A stretch of 64,000 nt of DNA from an uncultured Terracidiphilus sp. (GTDB lineage: Bacteria; Acidobacteriota; Terriglobia; Terriglobales; Acidobacteriaceae), in assembly GCA_964419175.1 (NCBI GenBank), contig CAYQOQ010000004.1:115-64114 (forward strand), written 5' to 3'. Below the pieces are notes generated by a model. The model ran no database searches and was not told where the DNA came from. It saw only the letters and a list, made by a program, of their open reading frames with translations. Both the position numbers and the translations under genes were made by a program. Below, in pieces: positions 24,101-44,531 of the stretch (its first letter is position 1; each line of letters opens with the position of its first letter).

Positions 24101-24130
24101 CGCAGCGGCACAGGCCAGGCACAACATCAT
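21107..24130 (-). CDS. Sensor histidine kinase: Reg_prop propellers + Y_Y_Y + HisKA_3 + HATPase
   Basis: Many WxGT/GLP repeats, RYRYMLEGFD...YTNIPPGRYTFRVQAAN, a TM helix, RIAREIHDTLAQG and HFGLTGMRERA. Start uncertain (24130 to 24355). Confidence 0.9.
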   Translation of the reverse strand: MMLCLACAAAVLLICVPAGLAVEPSTPLANFGRQIWAMESGLPQNTVQALVQTRDGFVWLGTEAGLVRFDGVGFQVFDRSSNPALPGNDVCCLLEARDGALWVGTSEGLARWKDGEIKAYSTRDGLPGNGIRALAEGTGGEPWVYTDQGLARLSGGKFVAAGEWRPGNAITAVTTKGSSGFWVDKPASVGEPWRKGAEKSGLPKDGIKFVALNGEGSAFADKNILVILHGDRIAARLMVGKELPGNRIQALFTDREGSLWIGTDDGLARWAEGKLQRLPVTDPLATASVLALMEDREGDLWVGTESDGLHILRDQRFRIFDVREGLASDATTAVMEDGGGTLWVGTQENGLSALRRSGNGMSLARNWTVRNGLASDVILSLAAAPSGDVWVGTPDGLNRIRGNSVATFTSIDGLPDDFIRSLLIDADGSLWIGTRRGLTHWKIGNNKAGGVPSAASMETYTHENGLGSDLVGAMARDVKGDLWVATLAGLSRLHDGAISNFTTANGLSSNVITALLPRGDGTLLVGTQDRGWNVWDGRRFSAAKQNGLEQTSIHTILADGGGHLWFATGNGIARCNYGVRSGSNSAAEYEHWMEFGAADGLHSRETATNSHPSAWQSRDGYLWFATPKGLVEVDPAHFPVNTIPPPVALERFQVDDVSQSLHGADSWLKVQAGHVRFEFDYAGLSFVAPLKVRYRYMLEGFDHGWTEAGARRTAYYTNIPPGRYTFRVQAANNDGLWSREGAALSFELRPHFYQTLWFYALLLVGVVAAVVLLLRRRLNVAEREFRAVLGERSRIAREIHDTLAQGYVGVSVQLEVLAELLRQRKLDDAGKHLNQTRAYVREGLADARQSIWALRTQDADETTLPVKLRRLAEGAGGEGLTANYSVFGAYRPLPIETERELLRIAQEAIHNVKKHAGASQLWVELKYGPDTIELEVRDDGRGGALDGAGRSILGNFGSGHFGLTGMRERAAAIGGKLEVSSARGTGTTVRLCAPAPGAVREQTGEKH

Positions 24131-24481
24131 CTTCAAGTGGGATTTCCCGGCCCGGGGTCGCAACCTTCGCCGCCCAACCGCGTGCGACAGTGCAAACGCA
24201 TGCTTCACAGCCTGTCGCCATGCGGTGTTTGCCGCCACATCGTTCGCGATGGTTCGAAGCTGGTTCATAAAAGCGGTTAGTGGACCCTTTATGCAGAATC
24301 CAGCCTGCATTGAAGATTGAAAGCCTCTGCCATTATAGGAGTCCATCGCCAACAAATGCCGGTTTCAGCCATCCGAGCGAGCGGCCCTGCCGAAGCGCTA
24401 GCGCGAGCTTTGGGCAAAGAGCAAGATCACACCAGGTTGCGCTATACTGCGGGACACGTAAGCAACAGGGAGGTTTTTGGG

Positions 24482-25229: not shown

Positions 25230-26474
25230 TTACCAGTACTCAACCGCAACGATTTGTGGTGGTCCAGAATTGCCTTGAATGACCGGGGTGGCCAAAACAA
25301 CTTCCACGTTCTTTCCGCTCCAATTGGCCGGCGCCATTCGTTTCAGGGCGTCCAGGTTGCTCCGGTCCATGAGGAACTCGCTGGCGGCCATCGTTCCATT
25401 CGGCCCAATCCCTGCAGCTACGACCAGAGGTTGATTGAGCGTGTCATCGTGAGTAATCGCCGCGATTGCATAGTCCTGGGTCCTATCGGAATAGGGGACA
25501 TGAAAATTGACGCTCCAGCGCCCATCCGGTTTCGCCTTACTGTCGACGATCTCGCCTTCCTCTGCGTCTGTGCCTCTGAAGTGGAAGCGCAGCTTCTCGG
25601 TCAATCGCAGCGTCCAAGGATTATCCAGAGCGCCAATCAGGATGGCCGGCCCAGCCCGCAGATCGTCGAACGTCGTATTCCGCGCGAGCTGTACCCGATT
25701 GGCTTTGCGGTGGCTATTCAGCAGCACTTGAAAGCGGGAGAGCGCCACGGCGTCTGAGAGTGGTATCACCGTGTTGTTTGCGGTCGGCTGACCCAGTGCC
25801 GTTGCTTCCGCCTGATCGTTGACTCCAGGCTGGTTTTGAGCAAGCAGGGGCGACCCGATACAGAGGATGACATCGTTGGGACTCTTCCATAGAGGCCTCA
25901 GCAGGTCTCGTTGCGTTGGCGGCCAATCCATGTATTGGCTTCCAAGCGCAATTGCGAACGCGACCACCATGAGCGATCCGGTTACGATAGCGAGCCTCAT
26001 CCAGCGCGAGTGGCGTGTGCTCGTCTGTGCCTGCTCCATGGAATGGTCTGTTGGGGAAATCGCAGAGGCGTCGGTTCCTGCAACAACTTCCGGTATCTTC
26101 CCGAGCGGGCGCCGAAAACGTGCCGCATACGACCCGGATGGCAGATCTATCCGCAGCTCGTCTTCGTGGCCGTCTTCCTGGTAGTACTGCGCGATCCGCT
26201 TTCTTACCTCGGCTGCGGCGACTCGAACGATGGAGTCTCCAGCAGTATCGAAACCTGGCTCGCGTCCAAACACCTCGATGCCCAGGGTGCGCTCTTTCAA
26301 GGTGTCGGAGTGGCCATCGATGGTCTGTTGCACCACGTAGCGCAGCAGATCGGTATACCGGCGGCTGTTCTTGAAATGGGGGCTAGCAAGCAGCCGCTCA
26401 GTCTGCAGCAGCACAGCGTCCTTGTCTGCAAGGGATAATTCGATCAATTCCGCGCTCTTCTGAGGACTCACCAT
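25230..26474 (-). CDS. Membrane-anchored putative transcriptional regulator (N-terminal wHTH-like domain, TM, periplasmic domain)
   Basis: LASPHFKNSRRYTDLLRYVV...LKERTLGIEVFGR...DSIVRVAAAEVRKRIAQYY, one TM helix and a C-terminal extracytoplasmic domain. Start set by alignment with its paralog (MVSPQ vs MATPQ). DNA-binding function is inferred. Confidence 0.75.
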   Translation of the reverse strand: MVSPQKSAELIELSLADKDAVLLQTERLLASPHFKNSRRYTDLLRYVVQQTIDGHSDTLKERTLGIEVFGREPGFDTAGDSIVRVAAAEVRKRIAQYYQEDGHEDELRIDLPSGSYAARFRRPLGKIPEVVAGTDASAISPTDHSMEQAQTSTRHSRWMRLAIVTGSLMVVAFAIALGSQYMDWPPTQRDLLRPLWKSPNDVILCIGSPLLAQNQPGVNDQAEATALGQPTANNTVIPLSDAVALSRFQVLLNSHRKANRVQLARNTTFDDLRAGPAILIGALDNPWTLRLTEKLRFHFRGTDAEEGEIVDSKAKPDGRWSVNFHVPYSDRTQDYAIAAITHDDTLNQPLVVAAGIGPNGTMAASEFLMDRSNLDALKRMAPANWSGKNVEVVLATPVIQGNSGPPQIVAVEYW

Positions 26475-26494
26475 GCTCGGGTTCATTCGGAAGC

Positions 26495-26506
26495 AAGTAT
26501 ACCCCC
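26495..26506 (-). promoter_or_regulatory. GGGGGTATACTT motif (-10 region) shared with the paralog upstream region
   Basis: The identical 12-mer sits 20 nt upstream of this ATG and 22 nt upstream of the ATG at 39064. Confidence 0.55.
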
Positions 26507-26742
26507 GGCCCATGAGACACGCACACAGGAGCTGCTTGTGAACCTGGTCTTACCGAAGCCTCAAACAATGTTCCTATCGTTCCAACGGCGAACGCATATC
26601 CACTTTAAATACATTACCTTACAGATTCCACATGGCGTCAAAGGCGATCAACCGAGCGAAACGGCGCCGCCCACGAGCTCACTTTGTTGGTGGGGCGCAC
26701 AGTTGGGTGAGATGAGTTCGGCGGCACTCATGAGAGAGGCTG

Positions 26743-26775
26743 GCCGCACCCTCCACTCTTAGTGGAGGGTGCGGC
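26743..26775 (-). terminator. Perfect 15-bp hairpin downstream of GH106
   Basis: GCCGCACCCTCCACT-ctt-AGTGGAGGGTGCGGC, about 20 nt after the stop codon. Confidence 0.7.
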
Positions 26776-26795
26776 GAATATCTTCCCTTCTCTCT

Positions 26796-29700
26796 TTACT
26801 CAGCAGCAATGGCATACAGGCGCACCGGCCCGAGCAGCCCGGAAGGCAGCAACTTTGAACTGGCCTTGTAGGGTTTCACGGTGGTGAATGTGACCTTGGT
26901 TGCGCCCGGCTGTTGGTCGCCAATGAGGCGGTTTACCCACGCATTGGTTACCTTGACCGATATTTGGTTAGCGCCGGGCTTCAGAGCGGCAGTTGCATCG
27001 ATGCGATAGGGCGTGTGCCAGACAGTGCCCAGAGACTTGCCGTTGACTGTAACCTCGGCCAAGTTCTTCACATCGCCCAGATCGATCCACACATGCGCGC
27101 CTTTTTTGAACCATTCGGGGTTGGCGTTGATGGTCTTCGTGTAAGTGCCGGTCCCGGAGAAGTACTTCACTCCGGCATCGGTGCTTTCGCTCCAGGATGA
27201 GAGGTTGTCGAGCGTAATGGACGGCGGAGCGCCTCGATCGGCCTGGAACGCGACGGCCCACGGACCTTCAACGGTGACGAGTTCCTTCTCTGTTTGAACG
27301 GGAAGCGTGTGAGCGGTCGCATGGGCCGCCTTGCGGAAGACCACGAAGACCGTGCCCCAGGGTTCCAGCTTCAACGGCACGTTGGTTCGGCCGTTCGCGA
27401 TTTTGAAGGAGACCGGCTCTGATTTGCCGGTTTCAGCAAACCATAACTCTGGCGCCTTGCCTGTAACTCTAAAGCTGGCGTCCACGGTTTCGCTGCGGTC
27501 GCGGCGGTTGTCGATAAAGTAGAGGTCGCCATCGCTCAGTTTGCGATGGACAAAGAGAATGCTCGTGTCGTTTTCCGGCTTGCTGTAGTCGAAGTCGGGC
27601 GCCACGTGGAGGGCGGCAAAGACATCGGTCAAACTCTGTCCTGCATAAACCGCGCCCTTGCCAACAGAGTGCACACCCGTGCCATCGCCGAATAACTCGG
27701 CGCTCAGCTTTTGGAACTCGGCCTGATTGTCAGACAGGCTTGGATCGTCGATCGGCTTCGGTCCGGCGACAACGGCGCCTGCCGTCACCAGTTTGTGAAT
27801 GGCGCGCAGCACCGGCAGCGACATATGCTGGCTATACGGATCGAGCCCCAGCACTTTGTAGCTCATCCCGCTCTTGGTTGTTACCTGACCATTCGCAACA
27901 TTCAGTTCGTGGATCAGGGCATCCGCATTCACGTAGTCGAAGCCATATCCGGCTGGAATGTCAGGCGCCTTCTCGTTGAAGATCGCAGTCAGGTTTGAGT
28001 CTTCGCCATAGAAGTAGATCAGGTCCGCACCGAAGCGGCCCTGCTGCAGGAGAAAGCTGGTGCGCGCCAGATAGTTAACCCACGGACCTGCTTGTTCGGC
28101 CCAGGTCTCGTTGCGGTTGAACCATTGACCGAACGGTCCCAGGGTCAGGCCGGGGGCAGTTCCCTTGCCCACCAGCGGCTGATGGGCCGACTCGTGAATT
28201 ACAAAGCGATTGATGCCGTTCAGAAACTCCTGATCGGCTGTAGGTTTCAGCGTTGACGGCGACCAACCCCAGGGCGCCGCTGCCGCGGTCATGGATTCGG
28301 CGGCAGCAAGGTTCTGGCCATAGATGTGCGCTACAGAGGCCGATTCGCGATCATCCGCGTTGTACCCGTACTGCACGTTATTAACCCCTGGTGACTGCGT
28401 CCACATCGCACTCATGGGCACTTCGTTGAACTTCTTCACTTCCATGCCATCGGCAACAAAGGCGCGCCCGGACTCGTGCGACTCGCCGTAATGGCCCATG
28501 CCCCGCTCATGCAGCGTTGCTTCCAGTTGTCCGTAGTGCTCGTTGGCAATGAGGTCGGCAATCGTTTTGCGGAAATCCCATAGAAAGCGATCGCTGGCCT
28601 CAGACGACTCCACCACCTGGCCAGTGAGAACCGGCATCCATGGAACGGGATCGTAGCCGCGCAGTTTCTTGAACTGCTCGACCATGTTGTCGGTCCAGTT
28701 CTGCGATCCGGCTTCCCAGCTATCGTTGATCACATAGTGAATCCCCTTCTTCCCCATCAGTTCAGGACCCACTGTTTCCTTATAGCTGTCCAGATATTTA
28801 TCGAAGTAATCTTTCACATACCGGCGGTCGAGTTTATCCACTTCCAGTCCGGTTGCCTCCGCAGTCGCGGGATGGTTGGTGATGCCAAGCAGTGAATACC
28901 CGAACCGAAGCACCACCCAATCGCCGGCTGGAGGCGTCCAGTTCAACGTTCCATCGGGGCCCACCTTCGACGTCAGATCGATTACATCGGATTTTGCTAC
29001 GGCTTCAGAGATGGCAACCGCCGGCGTCGCGAGGGGGTAGATGTCTCCCGCGGAAGAAAAAGCGGCCTTGTCTTCAAACAGGTTTACGCGTGCTCCGGCG
29101 TGCAGCACCAGCTCGGCAATCGCATAATTCGGGTCTGGGTCGTGACCGGCGAATCCAAACGAACTCGTATCCACATCGCCCATCCACGAGGGCAACGGAG
29201 GAGGAGGCGATGGCTTGAAGGTGACGCGGAAATACTTCGCCGTCACTGCCGGAAAAGCATAGGTGTGTTCGGCCGCGTCGCCACCTGTCAACTTTGCCAC
29301 CTCTTTGAAGTTCTTCCCGTCGTCGCTCGCCTCAAGGGCTCTGTCCACCCTGCCAGTGAACATGGCGGCAAAACCGGTAGGATCGTTGCCGGCAATGGTC
29401 ACAGACCGGATACTCTGCGGCTTGGCAAACTCATATTGTATCCAGGAGCTCGCGCCAGCAGCAGGTTTTGGCAGCTTGGTCGTCTTCTGCAAGTCGCCAT
29501 CCCGCAGCATCGCAAAATCCGGAGAGCCTCCGCTGGCGGTCAACTTCGGGTGCAGCGCTTCAATGGGCGTATCGACGGACGACCTGCGGTAGGCCACTAC
29601 CACGGAATCGGCGTAAAACTGCGGAATCGGCGCCGCACCGGCCGGTGCACTGAGAGCATCTTGTATTCCGATGTTTTGAAACGCTCCTGTATTTCCCGGC

Positions 29701-30185
29701 GGATTGGGAAGTTTGCCGCTGAAGGGTTTACCCCCTTCAACCGATGTTTCGCTCCATACATATTTCTTCATGCCCTGGGAGGCTGGCACCCAAGGCCCAC
29801 CGGACTCGCTCCAGCCGGGAGAGCCTGCGATCGCCTCTTCCATCCCCAACTGGTTGCCAAAAGTAATCGCGTATTTAAATGCATCCTTCCACTCCGGGGT
29901 CATATAGGCAAGCCGATGATCGACGACCTTTGGAGTTTCCAACGCGGCATCAAAGTTCTGGAAGCCACCGAGTCCAACGCGATGCATCCATTCCAAATCC
30001 AGCTTGATGCCGTCCTTGGTGATATTGCCATTCATCCAGTGCCACCACACGCGGGGGCGAGCACTCTCCGGCGGATTCGCAAAGCCGCTCTTGAGCGGAT
30101 CGGGTTGGTTCTGCGCACAGGCGGCACCTAAGGCAAGAACCGTCACCAAACCTGTCGAGATCAGTCCTCTTGTCCAGAAACTCAT
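26796..30185 (-). CDS. GH106-family alpha-L-rhamnosidase-like glycoside hydrolase
   Basis: Signal peptide, GFANPPESARPRVWWHWMNGNITKDGIKLDLEWM, YVINDSWEAG, EFLNGINRFVIHESAHQP and LPSGLLGPV. Confidence 0.88.
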   Translation of the reverse strand: MSFWTRGLISTGLVTVLALGAACAQNQPDPLKSGFANPPESARPRVWWHWMNGNITKDGIKLDLEWMHRVGLGGFQNFDAALETPKVVDHRLAYMTPEWKDAFKYAITFGNQLGMEEAIAGSPGWSESGGPWVPASQGMKKYVWSETSVEGGKPFSGKLPNPPGNTGAFQNIGIQDALSAPAGAAPIPQFYADSVVVAYRRSSVDTPIEALHPKLTASGGSPDFAMLRDGDLQKTTKLPKPAAGASSWIQYEFAKPQSIRSVTIAGNDPTGFAAMFTGRVDRALEASDDGKNFKEVAKLTGGDAAEHTYAFPAVTAKYFRVTFKPSPPPPLPSWMGDVDTSSFGFAGHDPDPNYAIAELVLHAGARVNLFEDKAAFSSAGDIYPLATPAVAISEAVAKSDVIDLTSKVGPDGTLNWTPPAGDWVVLRFGYSLLGITNHPATAEATGLEVDKLDRRYVKDYFDKYLDSYKETVGPELMGKKGIHYVINDSWEAGSQNWTDNMVEQFKKLRGYDPVPWMPVLTGQVVESSEASDRFLWDFRKTIADLIANEHYGQLEATLHERGMGHYGESHESGRAFVADGMEVKKFNEVPMSAMWTQSPGVNNVQYGYNADDRESASVAHIYGQNLAAAESMTAAAAPWGWSPSTLKPTADQEFLNGINRFVIHESAHQPLVGKGTAPGLTLGPFGQWFNRNETWAEQAGPWVNYLARTSFLLQQGRFGADLIYFYGEDSNLTAIFNEKAPDIPAGYGFDYVNADALIHELNVANGQVTTKSGMSYKVLGLDPYSQHMSLPVLRAIHKLVTAGAVVAGPKPIDDPSLSDNQAEFQKLSAELFGDGTGVHSVGKGAVYAGQSLTDVFAALHVAPDFDYSKPENDTSILFVHRKLSDGDLYFIDNRRDRSETVDASFRVTGKAPELWFAETGKSEPVSFKIANGRTNVPLKLEPWGTVFVVFRKAAHATAHTLPVQTEKELVTVEGPWAVAFQADRGAPPSITLDNLSSWSESTDAGVKYFSGTGTYTKTINANPEWFKKGAHVWIDLGDVKNLAEVTVNGKSLGTVWHTPYRIDATAALKPGANQISVKVTNAWVNRLIGDQQPGATKVTFTTVKPYKASSKLLPSGLLGPVRLYAIAAE

Positions 30186-30336
30186 CTTTCTCCTTCTTCA
30201 CGATCACTTGCTGCTAGTGTGTTTTTTGGCTGAAGTGAGTTGTTTCTTCAGTCCTGAAAAAGCTGGCCAGTACGATGGATGCGAATCAAATCATCTGTCA
30301 TCGCATGTTTTAGATTGAGTTACAAATCTCTTGTCG

Positions 30337-33300
30337 TCACTTCACGTCTGCTACATCAAATCGATAGGTGCCGGCAGGGAGTTCGTAGCCTGTCTGTCCT
30401 TCTTTTGTCGACGGGGTTGCTAAATTGTTGTTTACCAGAGGGGCACCATTGAGTACATACGTTGCGGCTTCGGCATTCGTCGCGCGCAGCCAACCGGTCG
30501 CATTCGCCGGAATGGTCAGCATCCAGTGCGCTTTATCGCCGTCCACGTTCCAGCTTGAGTGAATTTCGCCGTAGGGCGATTGAAAACGCAGATCAAGACT
30601 GCCGATCTTGCGATCGAATACCGGATGCAGATAGACGGTGTGGAAGCCTGCATCGAGGGGAGTCGCATCAACTCCAGCGCCATAGCGGTAAATCCAGTCG
30701 GCGACTGCACCGTAGGCATAGTGGTTGAAGGAGTTCATGCTTGGATCGCCCATCATCTGATCGCCGTTCCAGCGCTCCCACATGGTGGTTGCGCCATGGT
30801 CCACCAGATAACCCCACGATGGATAATCGGTATTCAACATCAGTTTGAATGCGAGATCGCTATGGCCGGTCTCGACGAGAGTGGCGAGTAAATAGGGCGT
30901 ACCGAGAAATCCGGTGCCGAGCATGCCGTGGTTGGCTTCGATTTTTGCCACGAGCCTTGCAGCAGCGGCAGAACGCAAATCATCGGGCACCAGGTGCATG
31001 TTGAGCGCCAGCACATAGCCGGTCTGCGTGTCGCCGCCTTTTGCCTTCGCGTCGGGATTGTTGATCTGTCCGAAGGGGGACGGTCCACTGTCCGCGCCGG
31101 GGATGAAACCATCTGCGTGCACATACTTTTGCGCGAACGCGGCACGGATATGTTCGAAGAGTTTTTGGAAGCGCGCCTCTTCGTCACGTTTGCCGACGGC
31201 GTGGGCCATCTGGCGCATGAGTGTGACGTCATAGGCCCAATAGGCTGTGGCCACAAGTGAAGAACTCGTGGGCCCTTCAGGCGAAAGCCAATCGCCGAAG
31301 GGTATGCCCGCATCGTGCATCCACAAGCCGTCGGGATTAGCCTTCTCGATCGCGCCCAGGTACTTCTCCATCGCATCCCAGTTCTGCTCGATGATTCTTG
31401 TGTCGCCGGATTGCAGCCATGAGGTCCATGGGATAATGACGCCTGCATCGCTCCACCCAGCGCCGGAAGCCTGCGAACTCATGCCCGTTCCCGGCGCCAT
31501 GATGCCATAGTACGGAGTGCCGTCCTGGGTTCCGCGCAGATCCGAAGCGAACTTGCGCGAGAAGGCCGCGAGATCTGCATTGTAGGAGGCGGCGCGCCAG
31601 AAGACCTCGGCATCGCCCGTCCATCCCATTCGCTCATCGCGCTGGGGACAGTCGGTTGGCACCCCCACAAAATTCGACCGTTGCCCCCACAGGATGTTGC
31701 TCCATAACTGATTGAGCATTGCACTGCCCGTCTTCAGTTGCGTTGTAAAGGGCGCGTCGGTATGAAGGACAATTGCCTCGACAGCTTCTTTGGCGGGCGC
31801 TACGGTCAGGCCGCTGATTTCGAGAAAGCGGAAGCCGTGGAAGGTGAAGCGAGGCTGGAACTCTTCCACGCCCTTTCCGGCGAGAATGAAATGGTCTGTC
31901 GCCTTTGCGGTGCGCAGGTTGTCCGTGTAAAGTGTGCCGTCTGGATTTGTGACCTCGCCCATGCGCACTTGCACGTCAGCGCCGGCAGGTCCTTCAACAC
32001 GAATGCGCTCGACTCCGGTCATATTCTGTTCGAAGTCGTAAAGATAGACGCCGGGTTTCAGCACCTTCATCGTTTTCGCATGCAACACGGATTCGGCGCG
32101 TATTGGCTGGAAGTCTTGCGCTTCAATGACCACCGGCTTGGGCGCGATCACGGTCGCAGGTGTCCAGCCTGCCTCATCGAATCCGGCGGTATCCCATCCA
32201 GGTTGCGCCAGCCGCGCATCGTAGGTTTCTCCGTCATAAATCTCGGCCTTGAGAATGGGCGACTGCCGCGCCTTCCACGCGCCATCGGTCGCAATCCACT
32301 CCACTCTGCCGTCGGCACGTTCAATGCGCAACTCGGCAAGCAGTGAGGGCGGCGTCAAACCGTAGCTATTGGGCTGTTGAAACCACTTCAACGGCGTTGA
32401 GTACCAGCCCGGAGCAAGCAGCGCCGCAAGCACGTTGGCGCCGCTCAGAATGTTCGCGGTTACATCGAAAGTTTGATATTCGACCCGCTTGCGATAGTCC
32501 GTCCATCCCGGCGCCAATGCATCGTTGCCAACACGTTTTCCATTCAGGAAAACCTGATACGCCCCCAAAGAAGTGACATATAACCGCGCCGAGCGCACTT
32601 CCCCTGCGCTTTTGAAGCCACGGCGAAATGCTTTCACCGATTCCGCTGGCCACGGGGCGCCAAGGGGATCGTCTCCCATCGCCTTGGCGTTCGAATCCTC
32701 GGTCCACTGGATTGCATTCTTCCATCCGCTCTCGTCGAAGTTCACGCCCGTCCATCCTTCGACGGGACGCTGCGAGACCTTCCAATCAGCGCCACTGCCC
32801 CAACTCTGCATCGAACCATCTGTATACCAAACGACCAACGTCGTCTGCATTGGCGGGTTACTGACTGCCGGGTTCCCACTAGGACTTATGTTGTAGTGAA
32901 TCGAATCGACTGCAATAACATTGGCGCCGATGCTGAGCGCGGCCGTGACTTCCTGCGGCACGTACTTTTTCCATGGAAGTTGCTTCCAGGCAGGTAGCGG
33001 CTTGCTCTTCATAACTTGCTGGCCGTTGATCCAGGCCGAAGCCGTATCCTCGGCCGAGACATACAGAGTGGCACGACGGACCGGCTTGGTCAGTTCCACA
33101 TGCGCCCGGTAGGTGATATGTTCCTCTGCGTTTTGCGGCTGATTGACATCCGGCTTTGGACTCGTGATCCACTTCGCGCCGGAATGCCGAACTGCGCGCT
33201 CTTCTGCCGTTTCATAACCAATCCATTGCGCGCGCCATGCCTGATTCAATAGCCCCGACTCCCACCAACTGACCGGGCTCTCGGGTGCGAGTTTGTTCTC

Positions 33301-33693
33301 TTGGTCCCAAAGCAGAACTTTCCAAAAATAGCGCGTCGAAGGAGCGATACTCGCCCCAGCGTAAGGAACGGCCACCGACTGCCCGCTTGCAATACGCCCG
33401 CTATCCCACACGTTCACTTTGCCCACTGCCAGCAACTCCGGCTTCGACGCAACGAGCAGCCGGTAAGCTGTCTGCCGCGCGCCTTGTCGATTGTCCCGCA
33501 ATTGCCAGGAAAACCTCGGCTGCGCATCGTCGATGCCAAGTGGCGTGACCATTTCGTCTACGCGCAGAGCCGCGGGACTGAGCGCCTGTGCGCGTGCGGA
33601 GGGGGTGAACAGCACAGTTCCAAGCCCTGCACAAGCTGCGGCAACTACGAGCCACAGGCCCGCGCGGTGTATTCCCTTCGCCATTCCGATCAT
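30337..33693 (-). CDS. GH78-family alpha-L-rhamnosidase
   Basis: PRFSWQL, LAPGWTDYRKRV, FTFHGFRF, PTDCPQRDERMGWTGDA, TTMWERWN and MNSFNHYAYGAV motifs. Confidence 0.92.
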   Translation of the reverse strand: MIGMAKGIHRAGLWLVVAAACAGLGTVLFTPSARAQALSPAALRVDEMVTPLGIDDAQPRFSWQLRDNRQGARQTAYRLLVASKPELLAVGKVNVWDSGRIASGQSVAVPYAGASIAPSTRYFWKVLLWDQENKLAPESPVSWWESGLLNQAWRAQWIGYETAEERAVRHSGAKWITSPKPDVNQPQNAEEHITYRAHVELTKPVRRATLYVSAEDTASAWINGQQVMKSKPLPAWKQLPWKKYVPQEVTAALSIGANVIAVDSIHYNISPSGNPAVSNPPMQTTLVVWYTDGSMQSWGSGADWKVSQRPVEGWTGVNFDESGWKNAIQWTEDSNAKAMGDDPLGAPWPAESVKAFRRGFKSAGEVRSARLYVTSLGAYQVFLNGKRVGNDALAPGWTDYRKRVEYQTFDVTANILSGANVLAALLAPGWYSTPLKWFQQPNSYGLTPPSLLAELRIERADGRVEWIATDGAWKARQSPILKAEIYDGETYDARLAQPGWDTAGFDEAGWTPATVIAPKPVVIEAQDFQPIRAESVLHAKTMKVLKPGVYLYDFEQNMTGVERIRVEGPAGADVQVRMGEVTNPDGTLYTDNLRTAKATDHFILAGKGVEEFQPRFTFHGFRFLEISGLTVAPAKEAVEAIVLHTDAPFTTQLKTGSAMLNQLWSNILWGQRSNFVGVPTDCPQRDERMGWTGDAEVFWRAASYNADLAAFSRKFASDLRGTQDGTPYYGIMAPGTGMSSQASGAGWSDAGVIIPWTSWLQSGDTRIIEQNWDAMEKYLGAIEKANPDGLWMHDAGIPFGDWLSPEGPTSSSLVATAYWAYDVTLMRQMAHAVGKRDEEARFQKLFEHIRAAFAQKYVHADGFIPGADSGPSPFGQINNPDAKAKGGDTQTGYVLALNMHLVPDDLRSAAAARLVAKIEANHGMLGTGFLGTPYLLATLVETGHSDLAFKLMLNTDYPSWGYLVDHGATTMWERWNGDQMMGDPSMNSFNHYAYGAVADWIYRYGAGVDATPLDAGFHTVYLHPVFDRKIGSLDLRFQSPYGEIHSSWNVDGDKAHWMLTIPANATGWLRATNAEAATYVLNGAPLVNNNLATPSTKEGQTGYELPAGTYRFDVADVK

Positions 33694-34910
33694 TGCTGTT
33701 GGGCCTCCGAGCCCAGTTCCTGCGGTGTGACGCTATCCTTCGATTGCGTGGATGCTGCCTGGTTCCGCTCGGCAGCTGAACGATTGCGCAGCTTTTGAAA
33801 TGCCGCTAGGGCCTGCTTTTGAGCCTGCGAATTGCCTTGCTGACGCTCGGCCTGCGCCAGGCGATACCAGGCCACTTCGTCATCTGCTCGAAGTGCGGTC
33901 GCTCGTCGCAGGTGGTCTGCAGCCAGCGATGGCTTCTGTTCATTAAGCAGAATGCCGGCCAGACCCACCTCCGCTTCCTCAAATTCAGGGTAGTAATGAA
34001 TTGCGGATTCGTAGAGCTGTTGAGCCGCGACTTGGTCGCCACGCTTGGAGCGCAATCCAGCCAATTCATAAGCTGCATTGGCATTTCCTGGATTGATTTC
34101 CAACTCCTTTGCAAACTCCGCGTCGGCAGCAGCGAGATCTTCGGCAGACTGGCTTGATCCCCATTTCGATAGATAGGCCCGTCCCATGCGGTAATGCACA
34201 TTCACGCGTTGCGGATCGATCTCCAGCACACTGCGATAGCTATTGATTGCATCCATATACTGGCCTTGGCTCTCGTGCGCTTCGCCCTGTGCCAACCGCG
34301 CCCACACGGAACCGCCGGCACCATGAAAGAGACTTTGCATCGTAAGATATGCCGAATTGCCAAGGACCTTTCCCACCGTGTAGAGCACTTCGGGATCGTC
34401 CTTATAGAGATCGCGCAGAGCCAGCGCAGTTTCAGCAGCGCGGCGATCCATCTGGAGGCGCCCGTAGACCGCGGTGAGTTCAAGCCCCGCCTGCCGTCTT
34501 ACTTCCGGGTCGGCGGCTGAATGAAAAGCCTTCTCCAGACCCGGCAATGCCTCGCGATTTTTGCCGCTTTCCGCAAGGGACATGGCCAAAAGCGATTCGA
34601 GTCCAGGCAGAGCGGGCTTAAGCTTGCGTGCTGCGCGTATCTCTTCCACAGCGCGATCGAAGCTGCCCAGTTTGAAGTCGATAACGCCGAGCGTAGCATG
34701 AACCTCGGCGACGGACGCATCCATCTTTTCCAGCCGTTCGAAGTCGGCGCGAGCCTCGTCGAATCTACCCGCGGCCATGGCCGCGCGGCCGGTGTTAAAA
34801 AGTTGTGCGAAATTGTCTCGATCCGAAGCACCCTGCGCCAGGGCTTGGGCCGCAATGCATCCAGCAAAAATCAATGCACTGGAAATCCAGGCTTTCCTTG
34901 TGGCTGTCAT
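33690..34910 (-). CDS. Exported tetratricopeptide-repeat protein
   Basis: Signal peptide (MTATRKAWISSALIFAG...) followed by repeated TPR helices over the whole length. Confidence 0.85.
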   Translation of the reverse strand: MTATRKAWISSALIFAGCIAAQALAQGASDRDNFAQLFNTGRAAMAAGRFDEARADFERLEKMDASVAEVHATLGVIDFKLGSFDRAVEEIRAARKLKPALPGLESLLAMSLAESGKNREALPGLEKAFHSAADPEVRRQAGLELTAVYGRLQMDRRAAETALALRDLYKDDPEVLYTVGKVLGNSAYLTMQSLFHGAGGSVWARLAQGEAHESQGQYMDAINSYRSVLEIDPQRVNVHYRMGRAYLSKWGSSQSAEDLAAADAEFAKELEINPGNANAAYELAGLRSKRGDQVAAQQLYESAIHYYPEFEEAEVGLAGILLNEQKPSLAADHLRRATALRADDEVAWYRLAQAERQQGNSQAQKQALAAFQKLRNRSAAERNQAASTQSKDSVTPQELGSEAQQQ

Positions 34911-34943
34911 AGGTGCCCAATCATAGCGAAGAGGAGATGCGAC

Positions 34944-34967
34944 CCGCCACCTGGACAAGCGTGGCGG
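34944..34967 (-). terminator. Hairpin after the TBDR gene (terminator or stabilising stem)
   Basis: CCGCCAC-N10-GTGGCGG about 20 nt downstream of the TBDR stop; no strong U-tract. Confidence 0.4.
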
Positions 34968-34989
34968 ATCGCGGTTTAGTTAGTTGAAG

Positions 34990-37900
34990 TTAGAAGGTGA
35001 ACTTGCCGCCTAGTTGCACGATGCGCGCTGGCCGGTACGAGGTAATCTGGCCAAAGGTTGTAGATGTAACGTTAGTGGATTCCGCTGTCGCGCCTGGTCC
35101 CACGGAGCTATTTGCATCAACGCCGAACTGAGCGTGGTTGAAAGTGTTGAAGGTTTCTAGACGAAGCTCAAACTTGGCTCTCTCGGAGATACTCACATTC
35201 TTCACCATGCCCATATCCCAATTGTTGATGCCAGGTTCATTCAGGGTGTTGCGCCCGCTGGTGCCGAACAGACCACCCTGCGGGACTGCGAAGGCGGCTG
35301 TGTTGAACCATTCTTTGGCATTCTTGACTGATCCGGAATGCGGGTTCCCGACGAGGTCGGCGCGTTGGATCGGTGTACCCAGCAACGAATTGGTGTCGTT
35401 GGCCATCACGGAGAAGGGGAAACCGGCCTGGAAAGTGCCGATGCCTGTGAACTCCCAGTCCCCCACCGCAGCGTCCACTGCGCGATTCATGTTTGCGCCA
35501 AACTTCTTGCCGCGGCCAACCGGCAGCACATAGGCATAGCTGGCGACGAAGCGCTGACCCACATTGAAGTCAGAGCGCCCGTAATCCCGGTGCGGATTAG
35601 CGGAGTCCATCGGACCAGCGTAGCTGTTAGTGGCGCCGATGCCGGCAGCTGCTGACTTGCTGTCCATGCTCTTGGCCCAGGTGTAGACCAGCAAGATGGC
35701 GTTGTTGGATGCGCGATGCTCTAACTTCACGTTGCCCGAGTTGTAATTGGAATAGCCAATCCACTTGCTATCCAGGAATCCATTCGAACTGCTGAAGTTT
35801 TGCAGTGGCTGGCGTGAGTGTGGAGCACAGTTATACAGGCCGCCTGTCGCTACTGTGATTGTCGAATTGGCATTGCAGTATGCCACTTCGTTTGTCGGCA
35901 GCGCGCCCGGCTGGTCAACATTGAAGCGCTCCAGAAGGTGCGTACCCTTGTTGCCAATGTAGTTGATCTCAAGGGTTGTGTTCCTGGCCATCTCCCGCTC
36001 GACGGACACGGTCCACTGCTGTACGTACGGATTTTGCGGGTTTTCAGAAAGGATCACCGCGGTAAAGGCTCCGCCATTGGCGGCGGCCGACACCGGAGCA
36101 ATTGCGCTCATCGGGGCGAACAACTGATCTGTCGACTTTAACGTTTGGCCGGCACTCGCCGTCAAACTGGTACGGATCAAGTACGGATACTGATCTCCCG
36201 AGTTGTCCATCTCGCGCGTTTCAGAGGAGTCATAGAATATGCCGTAGCCGCCGCGAACCACGTATTTGTCTGCGGGACGATAGGCAAAGCCAAAGCGCGG
36301 AGCAAGGGGTAACGGCCTGCTCGGGTTGGGGTGCTGGCCGCAGTAGCGGTAGAATCCGTTGCCTGCCGGCGCAATGCCGTCGGTCAGCAGAGTCTGATCC
36401 GCGAAGCAGAGTCCGCCAGCGGCGTTCTGCGTATCCAGCCAGAACAGTTGGTTGGTTTGCGCGTACGGAATCGTGCGTAGATCAGCGCGCAGGCCCAGGT
36501 TGAGAGTCAACTTGGCGCTAACCTTCCAGTCATCCTGGACATAGGGTGCCGCGTATTTGAAGACATAGTCGTTCTCATGGCCCGGTGCTGCTCCCGTGGC
36601 CGAGAACGGACCCGGCTGGAAGGTCGAGGCTCCGCTGTAGTAACCCAGCAGATAATCCGCATATGAGTTGCCGGTTCCGCAATACTTGTTGCCCGCCGGA
36701 CACCCATTGACGCCGCTGGTTCCATTCTGGTTGATCAGGTTGCTGCTATACGAATACGATCCGAGGAAATTGGTGGCCAGGTTGCGCTTCTGCACCCAGC
36801 TACGATAGTCGAAACCGAACTTGAACGAGTGCGCTCCCCACTGCTTCATAACCGAATCGGCGAACTCCCATACGGGAATATCGCTGGTGGTCGGATCGTT
36901 TCCGGGGCTGCCGGCAGAAACGGCATTCGAAACACTGAAACCCAGGTTCGGATAGCCGGCCGCATACGCAGGGAGATTCGTAAAGATGCCGCTGAGGTTG
37001 AGCGTTGAGATATCCGCTGCGCTGGCCGCACTGTCGCCCTGAATTGCTTTTGCTTCCAATTTGCCGAAGCGGAAGTCGTTAACGAAGCCGCGTGGCAAGG
37101 CTACCGTATAGGCGCCAGTCCAGCTGGTCGAGTTTTCCGAGAAGATGTTTGCCCCGGCATTAGCTTGGGCAGCGAGCGAGGAGGTCCCGAAGTTTGAAGA
37201 AGCGTAATTCGCCCTGGTATAGCGGAAGAAAATCTGCCCCCACTTCTGGAAGGTCTGGTCAGCACGATAGGTCTGTTGATCGGTGTTGGTTGTCGCGTTC
37301 GCCGTTGCAAACCAGTTCAACACGCCGTTGGTGTCCGTGGCTGCGGTCGGAATCGTCTTCACGGTTGCCTGGGCCATGTGAGAGAACCGGCTTGAGGGAA
37401 TCTTGTTCCCGGGAAACGGCAGCCCGGTCAGCGGATCGACAGGTGTGCAGTTCTGTGTGCCCGAACCCGAGATCGCTATACAAGCTGGCGTCCCGGCCAG
37501 CGGGAAAAGGGCCGAGTTCGCGGCAATTGCGGAAAAGTCGCCGCCAAGTTCAGCCGCCGTCGGCGCGGCTCCCGAGGTGTGGCCGCCTAAAATCGCGCGC
37601 CGCCCCTCGTAATTGGCCAGAAAGAAAGTCTTGTTCTGGGCGTTGTAGAGCTTGGGAATTGAGGCCGGGCCACTCAAAACGTAGCCAAACTGATTATCCC
37701 GCCATTCGGTAGCCTTATTACTGGTATTGCTCACACTCTGATGCGGAATGGCGTTCATGAAGTCATTACGGAGGAATTCAAAAGCAGAGCCGTGATACTG
37801 GTTTCCGCCGCTCTTGCTGACGATGTTGACCTGGTTGGCGCTGAATCCGTAGTCGGCCCCGTAGGTCGCGCTCTGTACTTTGAATTCCTGGATGGCGTCC

Positions 37901-38541
37901 TGCGACAGAATTACCGCCGGCGTATTGAGGGCCGTATCGGTGTTTATCAGGCCGTCGAGGGTGTAGTTGTTCGACTCCGGGCGGGAGCCGTTGATGCTGA
38001 TCGCATCGCCTTCGTTGGACCGCATCTGGCCTTGCTCGCCAACCGTCTGGACCGCGCCCGCGCCAACGAACAACAGCGAGGTAAAGTTACGGCCGTTGAT
38101 CGGGAGTTGCGACATCTGCCGCTCGCTGACTACCTGCGACACCGAAGACGAGTCTGTGTCCAACGCGACCGCGCTGGCGCTAACCTCGATTGTCTCGGAG
38201 ACGGCGCCCGCCTTCAATTGCAGGTTGACGCGCTGATCCTGTGCGACCGCCAGCACGATGCCACTGACCATCGTCTTGGAGAATCCGGCCATTTGCACAG
38301 ACACTGTGTAGTGTCCTGGAATCAGGTTGGTTGCCGTGTAATCGCCTGTTCCTGTTGAAGTTACCCTGGCGACTACGCCTGTCGAAGTGTTGGTGATTTC
38401 TACTGGTGCGCTCGCAATCACAGCACCTGTACTGTCGGTAACTGTTCCCAGAATCGTACCGGTTGTTCCCGCTTGTCCCCATAGGGTGTGGGCGAACACC
38501 AGCACAATTGTGAGCATCGAAAAATACTTCAGAATTCTCAC
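34990..38541 (-). CDS. TonB-dependent receptor (Oar-like type)
   Basis: GTG start with an AAGGAGG RBS; LPINGRNF, DAIQEFKVQS, GSAFEFLRND, and C-terminal RIVQLGGKFTF. Confidence 0.92.
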   Translation of the reverse strand: MRILKYFSMLTIVLVFAHTLWGQAGTTGTILGTVTDSTGAVIASAPVEITNTSTGVVARVTSTGTGDYTATNLIPGHYTVSVQMAGFSKTMVSGIVLAVAQDQRVNLQLKAGAVSETIEVSASAVALDTDSSSVSQVVSERQMSQLPINGRNFTSLLFVGAGAVQTVGEQGQMRSNEGDAISINGSRPESNNYTLDGLINTDTALNTPAVILSQDAIQEFKVQSATYGADYGFSANQVNIVSKSGGNQYHGSAFEFLRNDFMNAIPHQSVSNTSNKATEWRDNQFGYVLSGPASIPKLYNAQNKTFFLANYEGRRAILGGHTSGAAPTAAELGGDFSAIAANSALFPLAGTPACIAISGSGTQNCTPVDPLTGLPFPGNKIPSSRFSHMAQATVKTIPTAATDTNGVLNWFATANATTNTDQQTYRADQTFQKWGQIFFRYTRANYASSNFGTSSLAAQANAGANIFSENSTSWTGAYTVALPRGFVNDFRFGKLEAKAIQGDSAASAADISTLNLSGIFTNLPAYAAGYPNLGFSVSNAVSAGSPGNDPTTSDIPVWEFADSVMKQWGAHSFKFGFDYRSWVQKRNLATNFLGSYSYSSNLINQNGTSGVNGCPAGNKYCGTGNSYADYLLGYYSGASTFQPGPFSATGAAPGHENDYVFKYAAPYVQDDWKVSAKLTLNLGLRADLRTIPYAQTNQLFWLDTQNAAGGLCFADQTLLTDGIAPAGNGFYRYCGQHPNPSRPLPLAPRFGFAYRPADKYVVRGGYGIFYDSSETREMDNSGDQYPYLIRTSLTASAGQTLKSTDQLFAPMSAIAPVSAAANGGAFTAVILSENPQNPYVQQWTVSVEREMARNTTLEINYIGNKGTHLLERFNVDQPGALPTNEVAYCNANSTITVATGGLYNCAPHSRQPLQNFSSSNGFLDSKWIGYSNYNSGNVKLEHRASNNAILLVYTWAKSMDSKSAAAGIGATNSYAGPMDSANPHRDYGRSDFNVGQRFVASYAYVLPVGRGKKFGANMNRAVDAAVGDWEFTGIGTFQAGFPFSVMANDTNSLLGTPIQRADLVGNPHSGSVKNAKEWFNTAAFAVPQGGLFGTSGRNTLNEPGINNWDMGMVKNVSISERAKFELRLETFNTFNHAQFGVDANSSVGPGATAESTNVTSTTFGQITSYRPARIVQLGGKFTF

Positions 38542-38954
38542 GATACTGCCTCCTTGAAGGTTGAGTTGCGTTTCAATTACATGGCATTGGTCCGGTGACT
38601 CAGCAGCCGTCAAAGATCAAGCTCCGGCAGCCATGGATCCAGCCCCGAACAGTCCCGCTGCGAATGCAAACCTCGCAGCAGAGCTTGGAATCAAAATGCA
38701 TCATTTAGTTGGTCTCATAGATTCGGATTCAGGCTGCTCTCTACCGCCTAATGGAATGCGCGGCTCGATAGTTGCGTTCAAGATTCTCAAGCGGAACATT
38801 TCTAAACCGAAACTAATTCAAATGCAAAATCAGACCGAAAACTATGCGCGTATGCAGAGAATCGTCCAGTGCCATACGGTAATGCTCTCGTTAGAAGCGC
38901 GCGCAAAACGCTTAAGATCTATTTTTTGAATTAGATACGAAAATATCCTAGAGA

Positions 38955-38976
38955 TGTTAGGAGCTTTGTTAGGAGC
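38955..38976 (+). repeat. Tandem direct repeat TGTTAGGAGC (period 12), candidate operator
   Basis: TGTTAGGAGC-tt-TGTTAGGAGC in the AT-rich divergent promoter region between the TBDR and the regulator. Confidence 0.6.
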
Positions 38977-39011
38977 GTAGAGGTAGGACCAGTCTCCTCT
39001 TCGATTCCAGT

Positions 39012-39041
39012 TTGAATGCAATGCTTGGTGGGGGTATACTT
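39012..39041 (+). promoter_or_regulatory. Sigma70-type promoter
   Basis: TTGAAT-N17-TATACT followed by an AGGAG RBS and the ATG at 39064. Confidence 0.65.
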
Positions 39042-39063
39042 CACTTCGCTAGGAGCTAAGGCA

Positions 39064-40338
39064 ATGGCGACTCCTCAAACATTGGCGGAAATGACCAAAC
39101 TACCCGATTTGGACAAGGAGACTGTGCTGCTCCAGATGGAGCGGATTCTTTCCAGTTCCCACTTCAGGAACAGCCGCCGGTACACCGACCTTCTGCGATT
39201 CGTGGTGCAGCAGACGCTTGATGGCCATGCGGACATTCTGAAAGAGCGGACCCTCGGGATCGAGGTCTTTGATCGGTATCCAGGCTTTGACACTTCCGGA
39301 GATTCCATCGTTCGTGTAGCCGCGGCAGAGGTGAGAAAACGGATTGCGCTGTATTACCAAGAGGAAGGCCACGAACATGAGCTTCGGGTTGATCTGCCAT
39401 CCGGCTCATATGTGGCGCGCTTTCGCCCCCCGTCGGAGCCATCGCCCACAAACGTCACTGCGCCCGAAGCGTCTGAGCCGGTGCAGACCGAGAAGGCAGC
39501 GGATTCTGAACAGAAGAGCGCAACTGCTCCTTGGAGAAAGAAGCTAGCGTTCGTTGCTGTGGCGCTCCTGTTCATCGCAATTGCGAGCGTTATTGCGCTG
39601 TGGGGCAGATCCGACAGCGGTCTGAACCGGTTTTGGGGTCCGGTCTTTGAATCTTCCAGTCCAATTCTGGTCTGTGTTGGAACGGTTGAACCGTCGCATA
39701 TTGCTCCGGATTTTCGAAAGCGATTTACGCTCCAGATGGCAGACACCGTCAACGGAGCGGCACAGCCTCCAACTCCAGAGTCCGGTTTCATGGATTGGCC
39801 TGCGCTCACCCTGACCGATGCTGTCCAGATAACGCGCATCACCGAAATGTTGACAAAGCACCAAGTGCATTCTCTGCTGCGCTCCTCTGAGAATGTCACC
39901 CTGGCCGACCTGCGGGGCGGCCCGGTGATTTTGGTCGGCGTACTGGAGAATTCCTGGACGCTGCGGCTGGTTTCAACACTCCGATTCCATCCGCGGATGG
40001 ATTTTGCCAGCCAAAAAGTATGGATTGAAGACTCGCAACATCCAGAGCGCAGGAATTGGAGTACCCTGTGGGGACTCCCTTACTCGGAATCCAGTGACGA
40101 TTACGCACTGGTTACCCGAACCAGGAATCCGCTATCAGGCCAGATCACGGTTATTGTTGGCGGCCTGGCGATGCATGGGAGTCAAGCTGCCGGTGAATTT
40201 GTAACCAATCCTGCCTATTTGAACACTTTGTCTAGGAGCTTGCGCGATCCAAACAAAAATGTGCAGATCGTTTTGAAGATCGACGTCATCAAAGGCGAGC
40301 CTGGTCCGCCGCAAATCGTTGCTGAATACTATTGGTAG
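39064..40338 (+). CDS. Membrane-anchored putative transcriptional regulator (paralog of 25230..26474)
   Basis: 87 of 107 N-terminal residues are identical to the paralog by hand alignment; a TM helix and a more divergent periplasmic domain end in GPPQIVAEYYW. Confidence 0.75.
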   Translation: MATPQTLAEMTKLPDLDKETVLLQMERILSSSHFRNSRRYTDLLRFVVQQTLDGHADILKERTLGIEVFDRYPGFDTSGDSIVRVAAAEVRKRIALYYQEEGHEHELRVDLPSGSYVARFRPPSEPSPTNVTAPEASEPVQTEKAADSEQKSATAPWRKKLAFVAVALLFIAIASVIALWGRSDSGLNRFWGPVFESSSPILVCVGTVEPSHIAPDFRKRFTLQMADTVNGAAQPPTPESGFMDWPALTLTDAVQITRITEMLTKHQVHSLLRSSENVTLADLRGGPVILVGVLENSWTLRLVSTLRFHPRMDFASQKVWIEDSQHPERRNWSTLWGLPYSESSDDYALVTRTRNPLSGQITVIVGGLAMHGSQAAGEFVTNPAYLNTLSRSLRDPNKNVQIVLKIDVIKGEPGPPQIVAEYYW

Positions 40339-40611: not shown

Positions 40612-40940
40612 CGACCGCTCAGAGGTCTTGCCATGGTGGATGCGCCTATCGCTACGTTCAGCTCCGCATTCACCTCAAAATTCATCCTCGGTTGGGCATC
40701 GAGAAGCCGCGCATGAGTGCGTTGATGCCTCCCTACCTGCGGGTAATCGAGGCCGGTTTCCACAATGCGCAGAGCAGCTTATTGAAACGCTATGATCGAA
40801 TTCGCCCGGCAAAAGATGAACCGGCTTCCTTGACGTGCCCCGAACAGAAATATAGGATAGGTCAAATGCCGTTGATCTCTGCCGCACTTTCCTTCTGATT
40901 CGGCATTCCACCTTTATCTTGGTTGTATTTTGGAGGTTCC

Positions 40941-44408: not shown

Positions 44409-44531
44409 ATAGAAAAAGACGCAACGTGCCGCGGCATGCCGCAACATTGGCTGCTGCGGCACATTTGCGTAGCCCTGCACACCGGCAGACAATCTGACGG
44501 GCGCTCGATAACAAGAGAGGACAGCTTACCG

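Follow-up and report, generated by a model that had tools for sequence, protein, structure and literature searches.

Acidobacteriota are among the most abundant bacteria in soils and are major degraders of plant polysaccharides. To our knowledge, the control of their many loci that combine TonB-dependent receptors (TBDR) with carbohydrate-active enzymes (CAZymes) is essentially unknown, since regulators of the Bacteroidota type are absent from these loci. Among the closest described systems are the ToxR-like proteins, a family whose definition, based on CadC and ToxR, includes a DNA-binding domain of the OmpR type; such domains recognise direct repeats whose units recur about once per helical turn (PMC5430869, PMC8517210). 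Here we analyse a stretch of 64,000 nucleotides (hereafter the window) from an uncultured Terracidiphilus sp., which carries two paralogous genes, P0001 and P0002, at a locus for rhamnoside utilisation headed by a TBDR. Their products share one membrane-spanning architecture and belong to a family that is linked to TBDR and glycan-degradation genes and accompanied by conserved intergenic elements, and they represent two sensor classes that carry the same type of cytoplasmic N-terminal domain (N-domain). We consider it probable, at roughly 0.6, that in Acidobacteriota the family provides transmembrane one-component regulators, each specific to its locus, for the TBDR-headed operons of glycan utilisation.

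The two genes and the domains of their products are located as follows.

25230..26513, minus strand: P0001, 427 aa as longest open reading frame (ORF), family member located at the end of the rhamnosidase operon; probable start ATG 26474 or 26486
26106..26441, minus strand: cytoplasmic N-domain of P0001, residues ~25-136, four helices and a beta-hairpin, predicted local distance difference test score (pLDDT) >90, no known family
25938..25994, minus strand: single transmembrane (TM) helix of P0001, residues 174-192
25233..25901, minus strand: periplasmic alpha/beta domain of P0001, residues 205-427, weakly resembling the BcsB periplasmic fold
39016..40338, plus strand: P0002, 440 aa as longest ORF, divergent from the first TBDR gene (TBDR1); likely start ATG 39064
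39097..39432, plus strand: cytoplasmic N-domain of P0002, residues ~28-139, nearly identical to that of P0001
39544..39600, plus strand: single TM helix of P0002, residues 177-195
39634..40335, plus strand: periplasmic domain of P0002, residues 207-440, sharing 35% identity with the P0001 domain and forming a conserved sensor class of its own

End to end, P0001 and P0002 are 44% identical (BLASTP, E 6e-112); by domain, the identity amounts to 86/107 positions in the N-domain, 15/64 in the linker and TM segment and 77/221 in the periplasmic domain. Exactly one strongly hydrophobic 19-mer is present in each protein (174-192 and 177-195), inspection of the sequences found an N-terminal signal peptide in neither, and lysine and arginine residues are slightly more numerous on the N-terminal side of the TM segment in both. 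The positive-inside rule and the absence of a signal peptide therefore predict that the N-terminus lies in the cytoplasm. In an AlphaFold2 model of P0001 built from a 53-sequence alignment (mean pLDDT 84.6), the N-domain is confidently folded, with helices at residues 28-43, 51-65, 74-80 and 94-112 and strands at 121-123 and 132-134; a disordered stretch (141-166) leads into a long helix (167-195), and residues 205-427 fold with confidence into an alpha/beta domain. Because the hydrophobicity, signal-peptide and AlphaFold2 results agree, the order of cytoplasmic domain, TM helix and periplasmic domain is confirmed, and with it the bitopic topology of ToxR and CadC (N-terminus cytoplasmic, one TM segment, C-terminus periplasmic). 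The original prediction, made from the DNA alone, had described two paralogs of this layout with near-identical N-domains and clearly divergent periplasmic domains, and all of this holds, except that the 87 identical N-domain positions it counted are 86.

Both proteins are recovered by the same family profile (A1 profile, hmmsearch: 3.9e-186 for P0001 and 4.9e-168 for P0002) and carry its conserved motifs, KERTxG, VRVxAxExRKRIAxYY and PxGxYxxxF in the N-domain and DNxW, QDYA and a C-terminal W in the C-terminal periplasmic domain (C-domain). The same genome, of 5.0 Mb, contains 13 members according to the family profile, eleven of them full-length, and eight of the 13 are divergent from a TBDR-like gene across gaps of 168-727 bp. 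With a uniform gene set, 7/12 family genes were divergent from and within 1 kb of a TBDR-like gene, as compared with 13/3207 other genes (a background of 0.4%; binomial P 1.4e-14); these adjacency counts are lower bounds, since a simple ORF caller and two TBDR queries were used. The TBDR operons beside members encode glycoside hydrolases (GH) and related enzymes, namely GH2, GH28, GH106, PcRGLX-like rhamnogalacturonan lyase, GH27, GH42-like and GH88. P0002 follows this arrangement, at about 400 bp from TBDR1; P0001, at the operon tail, is the exception here, and its orthologs on two metagenome contigs (L126 and L134) are divergent from a TBDR gene. One further member of this genome (C51:14340-14939) has no similarity to the family after its VRKRLAQ helix and ends at 199 aa, which probably makes it a pseudogene, frameshifted or truncated; even so, it remains divergent from a TBDR gene, behind which a PcRGLX-like gene follows, and keeps an ATACTGTAT element upstream.

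Genomes of the same genus supplied 40 members, of which 15 stand divergent to a TBDR gene within 1 kb and two have one directly downstream. Ten genes divergent from members that lack an adjacent TBDR gene were scanned: four are GH3 genes, in four genomes, two encode XylR-type regulators, one each encodes a BNR/sortilin-type protein, a carboxylesterase and a tetratricopeptide repeat (TPR) protein, and one is unmatched. As GH3, BNR and esterase genes are also divergent neighbours, the family tracks glycan-degradation genes and not TBDRs alone. The four GH3 cases (L083, L088, L091 and L097) are orthologous loci in which the member is divergent from a GH3 beta-glucosidase gene instead of a TBDR gene, and look like a conserved regulator-enzyme pair without a transporter.

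At the locus studied here, the genes between P0001 and P0002 all lie on the minus strand and were assigned with Pfam.

34990-38613, minus strand: TBDR-like protein (TBDR1), CarboxypepD_reg and OMP_b-brl_4
33690-34958, minus strand: TPR protein
30337-33693, minus strand: GH78
26796-30185, minus strand: GH106
26796..38613, minus strand: putative target operon TBDR-TPR-GH78-GH106

Same-genus reference genomes contain no close ortholog of P0002 (best 41% identity), and its orthologs were taken from metagenome contigs. In L074, GH106, GH78, TPR and TBDR genes share one strand, and the opposite strand bears a P0002-type gene followed by a P0001-type gene, 80 bp apart; L077 has only a P0001-type gene, transcribed divergently from TBDR-TPR and followed by GH106. 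A metagenome scan with an 18-mer of the P0002/TBDR1 intergenic region as key returned 25 contigs; in 14 of them the match precedes a family gene by about 75-200 bp, and a TBDR1-type gene usually lies on its other side. By their C-domains, the family genes at these 14 matches comprise ten of the P0002 type, two of the P0001 type alone (L126 and L134) and two tandem pairs (L124 and L129), so that tandem P0002-type/P0001-type pairs are found in L074, L124 and L129. The 18-mer also had 13 matches in genome contigs; these come from unrelated phyla, are about as many as chance would give, and were not accepted as true sites.

TPR, GH78 and/or GH106 genes stand behind the TBDR gene in every sufficiently long contig, and at least 8 metagenome contigs, rearranged though they are, keep a P0001-type or P0002-type gene next to TBDR-TPR-GH78/GH106. 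Whichever their type, the N-domains are 78-87% identical to both P0001 and P0002; for the C-domains, identity amounts to 70-76% among proteins of one type and falls to 30-38% across the two types. Given these identities and the shared locus, P0001 and P0002 represent two conserved sensor classes on one output domain, and the pair belongs to the rhamnoside (GH78/GH106) locus. Pfam thus bears out the gene order originally described, with one regulator gene at the tail of the TBDR-TPR-GH78-GH106 run and the other divergent from its TBDR gene, and the proposal that these are locus-specific regulators of TBDR loci is supported by both the adjacency statistic and the synteny of the rhamnosidase locus.

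The intergenic sequence from 12 distinct loci was aligned as a footprint and revealed conserved islands in otherwise variable surroundings. The elements in the window are the following.

38860..38879, plus strand: invariant 20-mer AATCGTCCAGTGCCATACGG in the divergent intergenic region
38956..38976, plus strand: tandem direct repeat GTTAGGAGC-TTT-GTTAGGAGC, period 12, conserved in 12 related loci, candidate operator
39012..39040, plus strand: sigma-70-like promoter of the regulator gene, TTGAAT, 17 nt spacer, TATACT (promoter scan)
26496..26620, minus strand: decayed copy of the regulatory region upstream of P0001, with the -10 box TATACT (26496-26501) kept

Across the aligned loci the repeat reads CGTTAGGAGC-N3-GTTAGGAGC. 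In the window it lies about 71-91 bp upstream of the predicted transcription start of P0002. Such a distance is a typical activator position. The promoter appears in the alignment as the conserved string TTGAATG, 17 nt, GGGGTATACTT, and then an ATGGC start, and since this start follows the promoter, that of P0002 is placed at 39064. More generally, the conserved -10 box is located downstream of the longest-ORF starts, hence the predicted starts at ATG 39064 for P0002 and ATG 26474 or 26486 for P0001. Upstream of P0001, positions 26470-26700 (minus strand) align to the P0002-type regulatory region: the repeats are degenerate, GATAGGAAC-ATT-GTTTGAGGC, the -10 TATACT and the ATGG start are kept, and the -35 box and the 20-mer are lost. 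Because this decayed region aligns there, P0001 was relocated together with the 5' region that belongs to it, and its start is probably 26474. The original prediction of a shared operator, drawn from the near-identical N-domains, gains support from the presence of the same intergenic elements beside P0002-type genes (ten contigs) and P0001-type genes alone (two), with N-domains about 80% identical across the types; this is firmer ground than the near-identity by itself would offer.

The 20-mer AATCGTCCAGTGCCATACGG is invariant over a dozen diverged loci, a conservation far above that of the surrounding promoter region; part of it had served as search key, and three loci showed it before the scan. 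Its candidate roles are the site of a second protein, an element of the TBDR promoter or an RNA feature. It is followed by a conserved CGTTAG element. Between the 20-mer and the TBDR start there is also a block of moderate conservation (38790-38840; relatives' consensus AAATTCAAAACTGAAAnTAGTTCTTCTTTGAAAC), which may contain the TBDR promoter; a scan for a sigma-70-like promoter on the minus strand of this block gave no match.

Among the paralogs of the genome, k-mer counting found no long word common to all intergenic regions. The exact 10-mer TGTTAGGAGC has 4 genome copies, 3 of them in regulator/TBDR intergenic regions, and TACNGTA (consensus ATACnGTAT) occurs in 6/9 of these regions as compared with 2.3% of all divergent ones (Poisson 5e-7). 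Other intergenic copies of this rare palindrome, at C3:64355/64362, C21:3969 and C137:215, are directly upstream of TBDR-like genes without a called family member. Strong 11-12-bp tandem repeats are found in 3/9 regulator/TBDR regions with differing sequences, a thin line of evidence that would fit diverged specificities.

From this arrangement, we propose that each periplasmic domain would bind a different breakdown product imported by the TBDR and that the signal would pass across the membrane to the near-identical cytoplasmic domains, which, probably as a dimer or as a P0001/P0002 heteromer, would bind the same target in the divergent promoter region. The most likely target would be the tandem GTTAGGAGC repeats upstream of TTGAAT-17-TATACT, and binding would control the divergent promoters of the regulator gene and of the TBDR operon. 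Two sensors would then most likely feed one output. DNA binding by the two proteins, the identity of the operator, the ligands and the sign of regulation are what we infer here. A domain that acts in pairs fits the existence of proteins with two tandem N-domains: the representative search described below returned some of them (among P0123-P0128), for example a 211-aa protein consisting of little else, which suggests that the domain works as a pair.

The nature of the N-domain was addressed by several searches. Neither domain of P0001, P0002 and three divergent paralogs was matched by Pfam or NCBIfam, and a search of all PDB sequences with hidden Markov model (HMM) profiles of the full-length protein and of the N-domain returned chance matches only. 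Modelled by itself, the N-domain is confident (pLDDT 91.6; predicted template modelling score, pTM, 0.85); compared with PDB by Foldseek, the model had no match at E<=0.001 (best E 0.73, winged-helix proteins at E 3-4 only), and nothing significant was found in BFVD. A genome-wide search with PF00486 (Trans_reg_C), the OmpR/PhoB winged helix-turn-helix (HTH) that marks ToxR/CadC-like receptors, detected 8 bona fide domains and, within the family, matched only one paralog, at E 0.75. Alignment of the N-domain profile (375 sequences) with Trans_reg_C (37) by hhalign gave a P of 0.004 and a probability of 8.5%, and shallower profiles gave 5%. A Pfam tally over 146 N-domain proteins showed no recurrent family at E<=10. 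The label "ToxR/CadC-like" originally applied to the pair is therefore sound for the topology and not for family membership, Trans_reg_C being undetected by Pfam, NCBIfam, PDB HMM searches and Foldseek and reaching only 8.5% with hhalign. We do not file P0001 and P0002 as members of the ToxR/CadC family; that they work like one is the leading hypothesis.

The two could nevertheless be true members whose OmpR/PhoB winged helix has diverged past detection, which would be compatible with their role as regulators. This version supposes that the N-terminal beta-sheet was lost and that an extra helix and, before the recognition helix, a 14-residue loop were gained. At low stringency, hhalign places helix 2, helix 3, loop, helix 4 and hairpin of the N-domain collinear with a1, a2, loop, a3 and wing of OmpR, and the unfiltered Trans_reg_C HMM matches many members weakly, each time at the invariant basic helix (D-x-x-V-R-V-x-A-x-E-x-R-K-R-I-A-x-Y-Y) that corresponds to the recognition helix. 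One protein with two N-domains attains E 0.0011 against Pfam Trans_reg_C, in addition to the paralog at E 0.75, the G-x-Y...F hairpin resembles the G-x-G-Y-R-F wing, and direct repeats of about one helical turn are what OmpR-type domains target. On the other hand, all significance tests fail, no OmpR-family structure in PDB is matched by Foldseek, and, the members being homologs of one another, their recurrent weak matches do not constitute independent evidence. As proof of OmpR-type homology, the hhalign alignment was rejected at its probability of 8.5% and was kept as a lead; we regard the diverged winged helix as possible but doubtful.

For the periplasmic domain, Pfam, NCBIfam and PDB-sequence searches found no relative with known function. 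The best Foldseek match of the full-length model is BcsB, the periplasmic subunit of bacterial cellulose synthase (E 2.7e-3, probability 0.99, about 232 aligned columns), which at a template modelling score (TM-score) of about 0.25, 9% sequence identity and a root-mean-square deviation of 7 A is a lead and not a classification. Other weak matches from the C-domain are an archaeal S-layer anchoring domain and parts of GH67/GH115 glucuronidases. These weak matches are compatible with a periplasmic domain that faces glycans.

Such resemblances could also be read to mean that the proteins are not regulators but inner-membrane accessories of uptake, for instance in periplasmic glycan binding or hand-over, with regulation left to other factors or to a neighbouring two-component pair. 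The genes flanking the locus on both sides are the following.

20460-21158: LuxR-type response regulator, receiver and GerE, partner of the kinase at 21107-24355
21107-24355: histidine kinase, Reg_prop/Y_Y_Y/HisKA_3, starting 875 bp beyond the P0001 stop
40923-44408, plus strand: second TBDR-like protein (Pfam)
44436-46106, plus strand: exported adenosine-deaminase-like protein (Pfam A_deaminase, 2.7e-21)

The kinase has the sensor architecture of the hybrid two-component systems (HTCS) of Bacteroides, split into a classical two-component pair, and its proximity to P0001, together with the BcsB-like and GH67/GH115-like features of the C-domain (BcsB periplasmic domains guide glucan) and the XylR-type regulators that adjoin some family members, would favour the accessory role. 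None of the related contigs with the rhamnosidase locus has the kinase pair, however, and all of them have a family member. Divergent transcription and conserved elements in a shared promoter region are moreover typical of regulators, and a structural role would leave unexplained why paralogs with different periplasmic domains conserve a folded cytoplasmic domain of 115 aa. We consider the accessory role distinctly improbable.

The statement of the original prediction that no extracytoplasmic function (ECF) sigma/anti-sigma, HTCS or SusR-like regulator sits in these loci is accurate inside 25230-46106, where Pfam found no other regulator domain, and has to be qualified by the kinase pair next door, itself not syntenic in relatives. 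P0002 also lies upstream of a second TBDR gene, as was noted at the time; the position is right, and the linkage of P0002 to this gene and to the deaminase gene is seen in this genome only and not in relatives. The exported adenosine-deaminase-family protein is an unusual partner for a TBDR. At the other end of the operon, just past the GH106 stop, there is a GC-rich inverted repeat (26745-26790, minus strand; CCCTCCACT-AAG-AGTGGAGGG) without a T-run, which may be a terminator or attenuator that sets P0001 apart from the operon.

Several points weigh against the view that the family regulates these operons by binding DNA. The N-domain is not basic overall (isoelectric point, pI, about 6), and no accepted test (Pfam, NCBIfam, PDB HMM, Foldseek or hhalign) marks it as DNA-binding. 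Of the same-genus members, 17/40 have no TBDR gene within 6 kb, and the Reg_prop/Y_Y_Y kinase and LuxR-type regulator that adjoin P0001 could regulate the locus. The TACNGTA motif was chosen post hoc, and conservation and position are what designate the repeats as candidate operator.

The first two of these points would also suit signal transducers that act off the DNA, in which the N-domain holds and releases a soluble partner (a sigma factor, an RNA-polymerase subunit or another regulator) in the manner of FecR. FecR-type anti-sigma factors occur next to TonB-dependent transducers. The topology itself, a helical cytoplasmic domain of ~100 aa, one TM segment and a periplasmic sensor, is anti-sigma-like. 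Yet neither the surroundings of the 13 copies nor L074 and L077 contain a small sigma-like gene, and none of the 13 copies or relatives' loci has an adjacent ECF sigma gene; the 146 members match no anti-sigma or FecR family of Pfam even at E<=10, and the TBDRs of the window have no Pfam match to the STN signalling domain. Of the invariant residues, most are basic; they share a single helix, which is in register with the recognition helix of OmpR, and the tandem repeats are conserved at activator-like positions. We judge partner binding of this kind to be unlikely, and retain the regulation of TBDR-headed operons by DNA-binding transmembrane proteins as the preferred reading.

The family extends well beyond this genome. 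Among 8000 candidates scored, more than 1845 are full-length relatives of P0001, all "hypothetical" and none with a precomputed Pfam domain; the few with an organism name belong to Terracidiphilus and "Acidiferrales" metagenome-assembled genomes. In a survey of 301 Acidobacteriota genomes, full-length members were found mainly within the taxonomic family and class to which the window belongs, and in other families the N-domain alone occurs on proteins of 300-750 aa. A search of 1.84 billion cluster representatives (50% identity) with the N-domain profile found 21,588 at E<=0.001 and 18,007 at E<=1e-10. Within the genome studied here, a 794-aa protein (C181), with no TBDR gene beside it, has the N-domain and a TM helix followed by a TolB-like/TPR region; its relatives bear the Joint Genome Institute (JGI) names "TolB-like protein/TPR", "TolB-like protein/TadD" or "serine/threonine kinase", and Pfam matched the N-domain in none of them. 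There is presumably a parallel with the winged-helix, kinase and cyclase domains that head TolB-like/TPR proteins, which we take from JGI names and general knowledge; BLAST of C181 against the genome's long Trans_reg_C proteins found no similarity. A keyword search of the literature found no description of this family.

A more ambitious joint reading would hold that the N-domain is a new DNA-binding or transcription-controlling fold which defines a new class of transmembrane one-component regulators, that this class provides the main locus-specific control of SusD-less TBDR/CAZyme loci in Acidobacteriota, that the N-domain is an output module reused in >20,000 clusters with other periplasmic sensors (TolB-like/TPR) and that pairs such as P0001 and P0002 integrate two periplasmic ligands on one operator. 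We advance this combination only tentatively, at somewhat less than an even chance. A family of candidate regulators that has no annotation, numbers about 13 copies in each genome and counts thousands of relatives, together with a candidate operator and promoter, makes the control of acidobacterial loci open to experiment and offers a way to predict substrate-specific regulons from genomes. The uncharacterised N-domain family (21,588 clusters) merits a structure and a database entry.

In comparison with ToxR-like regulators (CadC of E. coli, ToxR of Vibrio, TcpP and PsaE), P0001 and P0002 show the same bitopic layout with the N-terminus inside and the C-terminus outside, a disordered linker, a periplasmic sensor and a gene located beside the operon that it would control, with a candidate direct-repeat operator. 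They differ in that no Trans_reg_C winged helix can be recognised in the cytoplasmic domain, the periplasmic domain has no relation to its counterparts in CadC and ToxR, no ToxS-like or LysP-like partner is evident, and the present family has ~13 copies per genome tied to TBDR/CAZyme loci. With the Bacteroidota regulators of polysaccharide utilisation loci (SusR, HTCS and ECF sigma/anti-sigma pairs), they share the arrangement of one membrane-spanning sensor-regulator per glycan locus, a periplasmic sensor that presumably reads the imported oligosaccharide and an expansion parallel to that of TBDR loci. In contrast to these, P0001 and P0002 have no Pfam match to Reg_prop/Y_Y_Y, HisKA, HATPase, receiver, AraC HTH or FecR domains and no partner sigma factor, and their loci have a TPR protein in place of SusD. 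The TolB-like/TPR membrane proteins of Acidobacteriota and other phyla begin with the same N-domain followed by a TM helix, and continue with a TolB-like/FlgO module and TPR repeats instead of the 220-aa alpha/beta domain. BcsB is similar at the level of the fold alone, as a membrane-anchored periplasmic domain that faces polysaccharide, as that of P0001 may do. What would be new here, as far as sequences can tell, is that both the output domain and the sensor of a transmembrane one-component regulator are of unrecognised kinds, and that the regulator serves glycan loci that do without SusD.

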